IMG/VR virus record: IMGVR_UViG_3300028833_000094
Location: 32,001 to 96,000 of that record
From: a virus
Taxonomy: Duplodnaviria > Caudoviricetes
Direction: 5' to 3' (one strand)
DNA length: 64,000 nt
Below, piece after piece: positions 1,709 to 12,837 of the stretch. The translations under genes and the position numbers were made by a program. Position 1 is the stretch's first letter. The number at the start of each line of letters is the position of its first letter. The notes below the pieces were generated by a model. The model was not told where the DNA came from. It saw nothing but the letters and a program-made list of their open reading frames with translations, and made no database searches.

Positions 1709-1854
1709 AATGTTAAATTTTAAAGGGTTTATAATTAAGTGAACTAAAATGCTGTATGAGAGGGTCAGATAAAAAAGAAGGAGAAGGAGAAGAAAGGAAT
1801 AATAATCCCTTCTTGCTCCCGCTCCTTATCTAACCCTTTAAATAACAATAATTG

Positions 1855-1993
1855 TGGGAATCAGGAGAATCGAACTCCTGTATAAGACCTACACAGTCCC
1901 TTCAGCTCAAGAAAACTTTTAAAGAGGCAGGACTGCTGTGACCTGCATTTCATACTTTTCTTGATTCAGTGTCTTATGCCACCGAGGATTCCC
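1855..1993 (-). ncRNA. tRNA-like RNA (139 nt): acceptor stem and T-arm, with a long helix replacing D and anticodon arms
   Basis: GGGAATC/GATTCCC-A acceptor; AGGAG-TTCGATT-CTCCT T-arm; nested helices ATAAGAC/GTCTTAT, TCAAGAAAA/TTTTCTTGA, GCAGG/CCTGC. Confidence 0.7.
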
Positions 1994-2007
1994 TTATAAA
2001 AATGGAG

Positions 2008-2079
2008 TAGTCCCAATGAGAATCGAACTCATATCTACTCTTTAGGAGAGAGTTATTCTATCCATTGAACTATGAGACC
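2008..2079 (-). tRNA. trnR: tRNA-Arg(CCT)
   Basis: GGTCTCA/TGGGACT acceptor, anticodon arm ACTCT-CTCCTAA-AGAGT, T-loop TTCGATT; AGG codons are common in this phage. Confidence 0.9.
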
Positions 2080-2323
2080 ATTTGCCCCACCGCTGTAGGG
2101 CTTTACTGCAATTTGTGAAATATGAAAAACTAAACCAATCGAAATTTAAATCAAGAAATATATGGCTGAAAATAATAATAAATTGCAGTAAGATGCCTTA
2201 TCTATTTTCACAAATAGAATAGGCTGGATAATTACACATATAAATGAAAAACACTTAAAGTTAGTCCTCAGCCTACTTATCACAAGCAAGCTGATGAATT
2301 TCGATTCAAGAAAACGCCTTAAT

Positions 2324-11431: not shown

Positions 11432-12616
11432 TTATCTATTTGAATTTTCTGTTTTTGTTTTTCCTCCTGCCTGTGAAGGTGGGAGGTTTTTAATGGCTTC
11501 CACTACTGTCTCATCCAATAGCTTGGCATATACCTGTTCTGTAATCCTGGTAGAGGAGTGACCACATATTCTGGATACTATCTGCATGGGTACCCCTTCA
11601 TTTAATAATAAGGTAGCTCCTGTATGTCTTGCCCAATGTGTACTCAGGGGTTTGTCTATTCCAGATGATTGTGCTACTACCTTCAGGTACTCATTGTACT
11701 TGACATTGGATATAATGGGTAGTCTGCCATTATATTTCATCAGGATATTCCAGGCAGGGGATAGGATAGGGATGGTAAAGGGTTTATCTGTCTTCAGCCT
11801 GTGTCCAGTATAGACCTTCATATCTTTAATCTCTTGTACAGATTTTATATTAAAGTATCTCAAATCCGAATAGCTTAGACAGGTATAGGTTTGGAAAATA
11901 AACACATCTCTGACTTTCTCCAGACTTTCAGTAGGCATCTTAGAGGTTTTTATCTTATGGAATTCTTCTGGAGTCAGGCATTTCTCAAGACTCTTTATGT
12001 CCCTGCCTTTATCTATACAGATATTCTTATAGGGATTCTTAGTCATGTGACCTTCATTAATAGCATCCAAGATGACAGAATTAAGATGCCTGTGGTAATT
12101 ATGCCATTTAGTATAGAGACACATTCCCTTACTTGCCAGGTAATTGTCAAAAGCTATAAGATTTAATTCATTTACATCCTTGAATCTCTTAATACCTCCC
12201 CATTCTTTAAAGACTTTCAGAAACAAGTTGTACCTGTCTATGCTTCTTGGAGCCTTACCATATTTCCTTATATCAAATCTCTGATGACAATAATCCAGGA
12301 AATTAATATTCTTTCTCTGAATCTTTAACCTGGCTGGTATGGAGAATATATCTATATTCCCCTCATTGGTCATATCAAGGAGTATCTGCCTTACATCAGT
12401 AAGCATCTTATCCAGAGTACTGCTAATCTGAAGGATATCAGGACAATTCAGGATCTTCCCTTTCTTCCACTGGTTTATATACAGCATGATACCAGTGGCA
12501 ATGTACTTTTGCTTATAGTTATAGGTAATTCTCATCTCTACTGCAGACTTTACAGTAAGGGATGCATTCTTTCTTCTGTTGAACACAAAAGTGATTTGAG
12601 GCTGTTTGTTAATCAT
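11432..12616 (-). CDS. int: Bacteroidota-type tyrosine integrase (arm-binding, SAM-like core-binding and catalytic domains)
   Basis: N-terminal VEMRITYN..KYIATGI arm domain; RDVFIFQTYTCLSYSDL (Ser in place of first Arg, as in IntDOT-like enzymes), HWARHT, GHSS, catalytic Tyr in VYAK. Confidence 0.92.
   Translation of the reverse strand: MINKQPQITFVFNRRKNASLTVKSAVEMRITYNYKQKYIATGIMLYINQWKKGKILNCPDILQISSTLDKMLTDVRQILLDMTNEGNIDIFSIPARLKIQRKNINFLDYCHQRFDIRKYGKAPRSIDRYNLFLKVFKEWGGIKRFKDVNELNLIAFDNYLASKGMCLYTKWHNYHRHLNSVILDAINEGHMTKNPYKNICIDKGRDIKSLEKCLTPEEFHKIKTSKMPTESLEKVRDVFIFQTYTCLSYSDLRYFNIKSVQEIKDMKVYTGHRLKTDKPFTIPILSPAWNILMKYNGRLPIISNVKYNEYLKVVAQSSGIDKPLSTHWARHTGATLLLNEGVPMQIVSRICGHSSTRITEQVYAKLLDETVVEAIKNLPPSQAGGKTKTENSNR
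11463..11491 (+). terminator. intrinsic terminator with GUGA loop, overlapping the integrase 3' end
   Basis: CCTCCTGCCT-GTGA-AGGTGGGAGG-TTTTT. Confidence 0.75.
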
Positions 12617-12716
12617 ATTTAAAAAGTAAAATAGGTAGTTAACTTCTCTTTTGAAGAAGCTTAGTGTAATAAATAAAAAAGTAGGGTGTAATAAATATGT
12701 AATAAATTAAGGGCTA

Positions 12717-12751
12717 AAAAATGGATGATAGGCCTGTATTTCCTACCATCC
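12717..12751 (-). terminator. terminator after tRNA-Lys
   Basis: minus strand GGATGGTAGG-N9-CCTATCATCC-ATTTTT. Confidence 0.65.
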
Positions 12752-12764
12752 CTTGGGTTCTTAG

Positions 12765-12837
12765 TACACCCGCAGGGGTTCGAACCCTGGACACCCTGAT
12801 TAAGAGTCAGGTGCTCTACCAACTGAGCTACGGGTGC
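12765..12837 (-). tRNA. trnK: tRNA-Lys(CTT)
   Basis: GCACCCG/CGGGTGT acceptor, D-arm GCTC-AGTTGGTA-GAGC, anticodon arm CCTGA-CTCTTAA-TCAGG, T-loop TTCGAAC; GC-rich and host-like. Confidence 0.95.

Follow-up and report, generated by a model that had tools for sequence, protein, structure and literature searches.

We report a 139-nt RNA gene of a crAss-like cattle-rumen phage, which we conclude is a real and conserved gene belonging to an undescribed, virus-only family of non-decoding small RNAs. Comparison of its copies points to a tRNA-like frame holding a pseudoknotted core with a variable loop, and we favor a model, to which we give a probability of about 0.5, in which the frame is a carrier and the pseudoknot its cargo, with the folded knot serving as a decoy or aptamer that binds a factor of the host or the phage. 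Few viruses of gut ecosystems are as abundant as the crAss-like phages, and to our knowledge almost nothing is known about their non-coding RNAs. The RNA described here has strong comparative support and is invisible to tRNA finders and to Rfam, and it offers a testable example of phages using the tRNA maturation pathway, by which it would be processed, to make an effector that is not a tRNA.

The RNA gene, its neighbors and its relatives

The gene lies downstream of a tRNA-Arg(CCU) gene in the window, by which we mean the whole 64,000-nt stretch of viral DNA analyzed (Table 1). The source genome is a complete viral record of 116,467 bp in which our covariance model R1 finds the RNA once, and its terminase has 46 to 54% identity to the terminases of crAss-like phages, identifying the source as a member of this group; the host is probably a member of the Bacteroidota. 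The spacer between tRNA-Arg and the RNA, originally given as 14 nt, has that length by Rfam but is 13 nt by ARAGORN. A tRNA-Arg(CCU) gene is also found near the RNA gene in loci L002, L005, L021, and L033.

Downstream of the RNA, a long hairpin (−41.9 kcal/mol, z = −6.9) is followed by UUCUUUUUU, and both are identical in the sister phage L024. We infer that this is a terminator-like end of a unit comprising tRNA-Arg and the RNA; a simple terminator scan did not call the hairpin. The genes beyond it code for a Myb-like DNA-binding protein, an SF2 helicase, a DnaB-like helicase, and a Sak4-like annealing protein. In the loci compared, the neighbors are replication genes, and neither a conserved partner gene nor a conserved RNA-binding, nuclease, or guide-binding gene adjoins the RNA; the large-phage loci described below and the crAss-like loci have no neighboring genes in common.

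Table 1. Features of the 139-nt RNA locus; RNA position n corresponds to window position 1994 − n
Feature	Window positions	Strand	Remarks
tRNA-Arg(CCU)	2007..2079	minus	13 nt upstream of the 139-nt RNA; ARAGORN, Rfam
Whole 139-nt RNA gene	1855..1993	minus	single copy; model R1 score 161 bits
Acceptor 5′ strand GGGAAUC	1987..1993	minus	pairs with 1856-1862
D-loop-like linker CUCGGUGGC	1978..1986	minus	contains GG
P2a 5′ strand AUAAGAC	1971..1977	minus	pairs with 1882-1888; 93% paired
Junction ACUGAA	1965..1970	minus	invariant in framed copies; ACUCAA in two distant copies
S1 5′ strand UCAAGAAAA	1956..1964	minus	pairs with 1907-1915; invariant in 26 copies; 99.6% paired
Loop L1	1937..1955	minus	GUAU (1955-1952), then variable segment GAAAUGCAGGUCACA (1951-1937)
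S2 5′ strand GCAGUCC	1930..1936	minus	pairs with 1893-1899; 100% paired; inside the S1-closed loop
Loop L2 UGCCUCUUUAAAAG	1916..1929	minus	nearly invariant; identical or UGCU in 28/30 copies, distant copies included
S1 3′ strand UUUUCUUGA	1907..1915	minus	from pairing counts; 9-bp stem
Loop L3 GCUGAAG	1900..1906	minus	consensus RCYGAWG (30-copy comparison)
S2 3′ strand GGACUGU	1893..1899	minus	3′ of S1
Junction GUAG (1892-1889) and P2a 3′ strand GUCUUAU (1888-1882)	1882..1892	minus	
T-arm AGGAG-UUCGAUU-CUCCU	1863..1879	minus	98.5% paired; 3/5 pairs change on both sides
Acceptor 3′ strand GAUUCCC and discriminator A (1855)	1855..1862	minus	
Long hairpin, then U-run	1761..1837	minus	18 nt downstream of the 139-nt RNA

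Several other features of these genomes are of note. A short G+C-rich hairpin lies just upstream of tRNA-Arg (window 2084-2101), and similar hairpins are found 3 to 12 nt upstream of the RNA in loci L002, L005, L006, L010, L012, L013, L017, and L018; their loops are of the GNGG or GNGA type (for example, CCCUACAGCGGUGGGG), and they may be processing or termination signals of small-RNA units. The source genome also codes for a second, unrelated tRNA-like RNA of about 104 nt, outside the window (G000:C1:5668-5771, minus strand), which has a closing stem GGGGA.../...UCCCC, lacks a canonical T-loop, and gives no match to model R1; it is preceded by an AGCG-loop hairpin of the same kind as that before tRNA-Arg. 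At window 11432-12837, a tyrosine-type integrase gene (PHROG 1, E = 8e-36) adjoins a tRNA-Lys(CUU) gene, which suggests that this crAss-like phage may integrate. In the sister phage L024 (a 113,881-bp contig), the anticodon loop of tRNA-Arg(CCU) carries a 468-nt insertion (L024:1934-2489, minus strand) at a site equivalent to window 2041-2045, where the tRNA-Arg of the window is intact. The insertion has no long open reading frame and gives a weak end-to-end match to RF00028 (18.9 bits, E = 0.02, below the Rfam threshold), and we regard it as a probable group I intron.

Exact-pattern scans of viral and metagenome collections identified about 35 loci, with 26 distinct framed copies of 136 to 155 nt, and all sequencing runs containing the 139-nt RNA stretch, each used as assembled contigs, are from bovine gut or rumen. 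Phage contigs of 85, 101, 192, and 388 kb carry more distant copies within their tRNA arrays, three each in the 388-kb and 101-kb records, and the pseudoknot core is common to crAss-like phages and unrelated large phages; all copies found are in or beside tRNA genes. Searching 185,579 bacterial and archaeal species genomes with two core patterns gave zero matches, and a BLASTN search of 50,697 phage records recovered tRNA-Arg only and not the 139-nt RNA. Model R1 similarly found nothing beside the tRNA-Arg genes of cr128_1 or bajarodcaudo virus 1. In literature searches, which did not extend to the supplements of an IMG/VR catalog of 10,006 candidate RNAs (2023, PMC10690425), no description of this RNA was found.

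The family is both abundant and multi-allelic in one cattle sample. In run X15, the conserved 3′ half of the RNA (window 1853-1937) has word depths of 500 to 2,200, compared with 25 to 130 for most of the neighboring DNA, tRNA-Arg excepted, and with about 40 for the variable allele of the window itself, making the core about 50 times deeper than this allele. Many short contigs in the same run end at 1920-1926, just before the variable segment. A 1,555-nt contig from an RNA library spans the copy of a relative, although DNA carry-over is possible in this library and the contig is no proof of transcription or processing.

A pseudoknot core in a tRNA-like frame

We evaluated a structure consisting of the acceptor stem, P2a, S1, the T-arm, and a pseudoknot helix, S2, in an alignment of the 26 framed copies. 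The model is 96.0% paired, a figure that drops to 34 to 54% when the registers are slid. Both sides change in ten pairs (57 cells), and none of 500 shuffles reached the covariation score of 0.218. Acceptor positions 5 and 6 covary (G-C/A-U, 18/8; U-A/C-G, 13/12), the outermost P2a pair occurs as G-C (10 copies), A-U (8), and U-A (1), and AAGAC/GUCUU within P2a becomes GAGAC/GUCUC in some copies. The first pair of S1 changes from U-A to A-U in L037 and L053, the two most distant copies.

The pseudoknot was missed when the window was first read. Its strands, GCAGUCC and GGACUGU, are 100% paired in the 26 copies, with three pairs changing on both sides, and when the comparison is extended to 30 copies using fixed anchors there are 13 versions of the strand pair, each forming 6 to 7 of the 7 pairs; among these are GUAAUCC/GGAUUAU, GCAAUUC/GAAUUGU, GGUGUC/GACACC, GAUGAC/GUCAUC, and AGCAAC/GUUGCU. 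On this comparative evidence, S2 forms a pseudoknot, and it completes a core of about 82 nt made up of the 9-bp S1, the 7-bp S2, nearly invariant loops, and an A-rich variable loop. A possible extension of S1, between the A-rich start of L1 and the UUU of L2, is 92% pairable, although its variation is one-sided only. The framed copies are close relatives, and much of the invariance of the core may stem from shared descent in addition to constraint; the distant copies speak for constraint.

The minimum free energy (MFE) fold of the window copy is different: it is cloverleaf-like and includes a D-like stem of 6 bp together with a long hairpin resembling a variable arm. In the alignment, 66.7% of the D-like stem is paired and the stem fails in 10 of the 26 copies, the distal hairpin that includes GCAGG/CCUGC is 34 to 55% paired, and because helices found in the MFE fold alone score no higher than shuffles, we reject this cloverleaf with its D-like stem and its distal and variable-arm hairpins. 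Its energy is nonetheless the lower, at −47.0 kcal/mol, versus −25.7 kcal/mol for the nested supported helices, to which S2 adds about −10 kcal/mol; nearest-neighbor energies thus favor the unsupported fold, and the case for the knot is comparative and not thermodynamic. Model R1 contains the nested helices only, as the covariance tool cannot model pseudoknots.

Most of the elements named in the original prediction are borne out by the alignment. The perfect 7-bp acceptor stem with discriminator A, the canonical T-arm, the GG-containing linker, and the helices AUAAGAC/GUCUUAU and UCAAGAAAA/UUUUCUUGA are all in the sequence, the acceptor, the T-arm, and both helices are supported by covariation, and the GG is retained throughout the family. 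The third helix proposed, GCAGG/CCUGC, is present in the window copy but is not conserved, and is specific to that copy because its 5′ arm is inside the variable segment. The lack of a D-stem holds for the family, although in the window copy such a stem can be drawn.

The frame is tRNA-like. The distance from T-loop to discriminator is 12 nt in 25 of the 26 copies, 12 acceptor and T-arm pairs (7+5 or 6+6) are stacked in 21, and the discriminator is A in 25; the tRNA-type 12-bp acceptor/T-arm minihelix with its T-loop and discriminator is present. Position −1 is U in 18 of the 26, the base after the discriminator is C in every copy, and none encodes CCA. The 3:70 pair is G-C in 18 copies, including that of the window, G-U in seven, and A-U in one. 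Features such as the 12-nt spacing and the discriminator are those read by RNase P, RNase Z, and the CCA-adding enzyme, and it is plausible that the 139-nt RNA is matured by RNase P and by CCA addition.

The core is nearly invariant while the frame varies. There are three frame types, two of them distinguished by their linkers (CUCGGUGGC-like or AAAGGCAUYAG, with GG in both), and the third, found in the 388-, 192-, 101-, and 85-kb records, beginning with GGG and having an outer stem and P2a while lacking the T-arm. In the 388-kb viral record (G001), three such T-arm-less cores lie among tRNA genes (L049:1355-1447, L049:1524-1607, and L053:1524-1604), one of them with a tRNA-Asp gene on either side; the variable segment differs in all three, and the third copy also differs in its S2 sequence. 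These arrangements show the pseudoknot module to be independent of the T-arm.

We propose that the 139-nt RNA is transcribed together with tRNA-Arg(CCU), that RNase P would cut at G1, and that 3′ trimming and CCA addition would take place after A139. Because its release would depend on tRNA maturation enzymes, the tRNA half would serve as a processing and stability handle, and the existence of cores that lack a T-arm makes a carrier for maturation and stability the most likely role of the tRNA part. The knot would be the working part, binding a factor that belongs to the phage or to its Bacteroidota host, since the same knot is found in T-arm-less form between ordinary tRNA genes in large phages. 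Invariant loops, covarying stems, and a loop of free length together make a signature of a binding site, and the occurrence of the core in unrelated phages, its absence from the cellular genomes searched, and the lack of a conserved partner gene suggest a host-directed role. The variable loop would be an exposed connector whose sequence is either free or possibly allele-specific. If the knot does bind a host factor or a small molecule, it would represent a new class of RNA decoy or aptamer.

Alleles of the variable loop

The segment between GUAU and S2 is present as 25 distinct alleles of 15 to 30 nt, with one of 53 nt. Of the 25, 23 begin with A and 23 end in CA; overall, the alleles are 42% A and 16% G, and their self-structure is not above that of shuffles. 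The exchange of one allele for another is seen in L024, which shares 95 to 98% identity with the window genome over kilobases. The RNA gene and the 70 nt downstream of it differ by one wobble-compatible change outside the segment, and the segment itself is replaced (13 nt versus 15 nt).

In four locus pairs, the downstream flanks are 96 to 99% identical and the segments are unrelated (18 to 52% identity), whereas in two other pairs the flanks are 66 to 71% identical and the segments are identical; no pair is intermediate, and the alleles are decoupled from their flanks. Three of the four flank-matched pairs also differ in the upstream flank or elsewhere in the RNA gene (the fourth is without upstream sequence), and these differences fit an unconstrained connector together with a recombination hotspot. 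The variable segment may thus be a specificity cassette, or it may simply connect, free of sequence constraint, within a gene whose invariant core is a hotspot for recombination; the discrete behavior of the alleles could mean that the loop is more than a passive connector.

The principal rival to the carrier-and-cargo model, though one we think unlikely, is that the knot displays 8 to 20 free loop nucleotides as a seed or guide to nucleic acid of the host or of a rival phage, with the alleles being specificity determinants that are kept diverse by selection and exchanged between phages. In its favor are the decoupling of segments from flanks with no intermediate pairs and a segment that is single-stranded, A-rich, G-poor, and fixed at its edges; the three different segments in the three copies of one 388-kb phage, and the roughly 50-fold excess of core over window allele in one sample, point the same way. 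Searches for targets, which covered seeds without mismatches, were negative. Local 11-mer seeds occur at the chance rate, sense or antisense matches of a segment to its own locus do not surpass those given by foreign alleles (mean rank about 9 of 16), and a 12-nt segment match in the phage's own genome is in the sense orientation and falls on an internal codon. Two segments of 20 nt recur nowhere else as exact matches in 2.9 million viral contigs, and no nuclease or guide-binding gene is conserved nearby. Moreover, recombination within an invariant core, combined with an unconstrained loop, could equally explain the decoupling, and the geometry of the pseudoknot alone may demand a long connector.

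We consider improbable the more specific proposal of a tRNA-scaffolded programmable RNA in which a swappable cassette of 8 to 20 nt sets recognition and alleles pass between unrelated Bacteroidota phages; its targets may be a transcript of the host or of a rival phage, or a defense RNA. Were the variable loop to prove a specificity cassette, the RNA would represent a new type of programmable RNA in phages, and the proposal as a whole would amount to a new RNA-guided or immunity-like phage system that has no dedicated protein gene adjoining it.

Comparison with known systems

ARAGORN, with and without its intron option, calls neither a tRNA nor a tmRNA for the 139-nt RNA, and Rfam 15 has no relevant family for it, either at gathering scores or at E values up to 10. 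A 16-bit match to the ‘skipping-rope’ family and weak miRNA-like matches are due to chance or belong to the downstream hairpin. The RNA thus has no known-family match by either program, and its homologs covary and do not decay.

The original prediction likened the RNA to a minimal tmRNA, and the likeness in topology is real. As in the tRNA-like domain of tmRNA, there is an acceptor stem and a T-arm, a loop with GG replaces the D-arm, and there is no anticodon arm; a helix, corresponding to P2 and here at the position of the anticodon stem, leaves the domain and is followed by a pseudoknot. The G3-U70 pair is the alanine identity pair of tmRNA, and the G3-C70 noted instead in the window copy is indeed the majority state in the family. 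Membership in the tmRNA class is not supported, given this predominance of G3-C70 (18 of 26 copies), the lack of a conserved tag frame with its resume codon and stop, and the lack of a match to the tmRNA models; in addition, the RNA has one knot rather than four, is 136 to 155 nt long rather than about 360 nt, and has a core that is found in T-arm-less form as well.

A minimal tmRNA-like molecule, or a decoy for SmpB, EF-Tu, or AlaRS that disturbs ribosome rescue or tRNA-sensing defense, might still be imagined from the tRNA-like topology, the position of the pseudoknot after P2a, and the seven copies with G3-U70. We think this very unlikely, given that the window copy is among those with G3-C70, that neither ARAGORN nor Rfam (E up to 10) gives a tmRNA match, and that no reading frame through the variable loop is conserved among the alleles, whose lengths of 15 to 30 nt are not in register. 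The presence of the core in T-arm-less frames also means that the tRNA-like domain cannot be the essential part. Action as a decoy for anticodon nucleases, also raised at the outset, is unlikely because there is no anticodon loop. Among those early alternatives, a stable scaffold for the inserted helix fits best, as the inserted core is found in large phages without the T-arm.

Another reading, about which we are strongly doubtful, is that the knot is a new self-cleaving ribozyme or a processing element of phage tRNA operons, cutting or marking the polycistronic transcript. Invariant junctions, covarying stems, and a free loop are also the signature of small ribozymes, and the copies are in or beside tRNA genes. 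The order of strands, with a conserved C followed by N-G-A ahead of the second stem, resembles the nested P1/P2 of HDV-like ribozymes. No ribozyme family in Rfam matches at E values up to 10, however, and an HDV-like fold (theta ribozymes included) is doubtful in that, by inspection, the loop separating S2 from S1 is unable to fold into the P3/L3 hairpin; nor would cleavage inside a tRNA-like frame have an obvious purpose. Finally, a class II tRNA whose anticodon arm is interrupted by an insertion or intron, or a decaying pseudo-tRNA, is largely refuted and has a negligible probability: the MFE fold is cloverleaf-like, a variable-arm-like hairpin can be drawn in 98.7% of cells, and the neighboring tRNA-Arg of L024 has a probable group I intron, but the D-like stem and other MFE-only helices fail as described above, there is no anticodon loop, RF00005 (E up to 10) finds no cloverleaf with a D-arm and a 7-nt anticodon loop, the ARAGORN intron option and RF00028 find no intron in the RNA itself, and the insert, far from decaying, covaries and is conserved better than any other part.

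YrlA and other bacterial Y RNAs give no Rfam match at E values up to 10 and are organized differently, with the ends forming a Ro-binding stem and the tRNA-like part being distal, whereas the ends of the 139-nt RNA form the acceptor stem. The nearest natural analog in kind is RNAC (species 1 RNA) of phage T4, which is also 139 nt long, phage-encoded, located directly after tRNA-Arg in a tRNA cluster, and equipped with a T-arm, and which a 2022 study of T4 described as an RNA ‘of yet unknown function’ (PMC9697503). The two are not homologous: RNAC has a different inserted domain and no core motif, the default search with model R1 gives no match, and its R1 score of 19.8 bits is at the level of ordinary T4 tRNAs (13 to 18 bits), from which we reject homology to T4 rnaC. 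The carrier idea may nevertheless extend to RNAC and to RNAD, small stable RNAs of the T4 tRNA cluster.

Carriage of RNA cargo by a tRNA scaffold has precedents in engineered tRNA-scaffold expression systems and in the tRNA-like/pre-miRNA chimeras of murine gammaherpesvirus 68, in which, as we propose here, a tRNA-shaped part provides processing and stability for a cargo RNA set into the tRNA body or joined to it. Unlike those examples, which are man-made or from a eukaryotic virus, the 139-nt RNA is a natural bacteriophage RNA that has no D-arm and whose cargo would be a pseudoknot.
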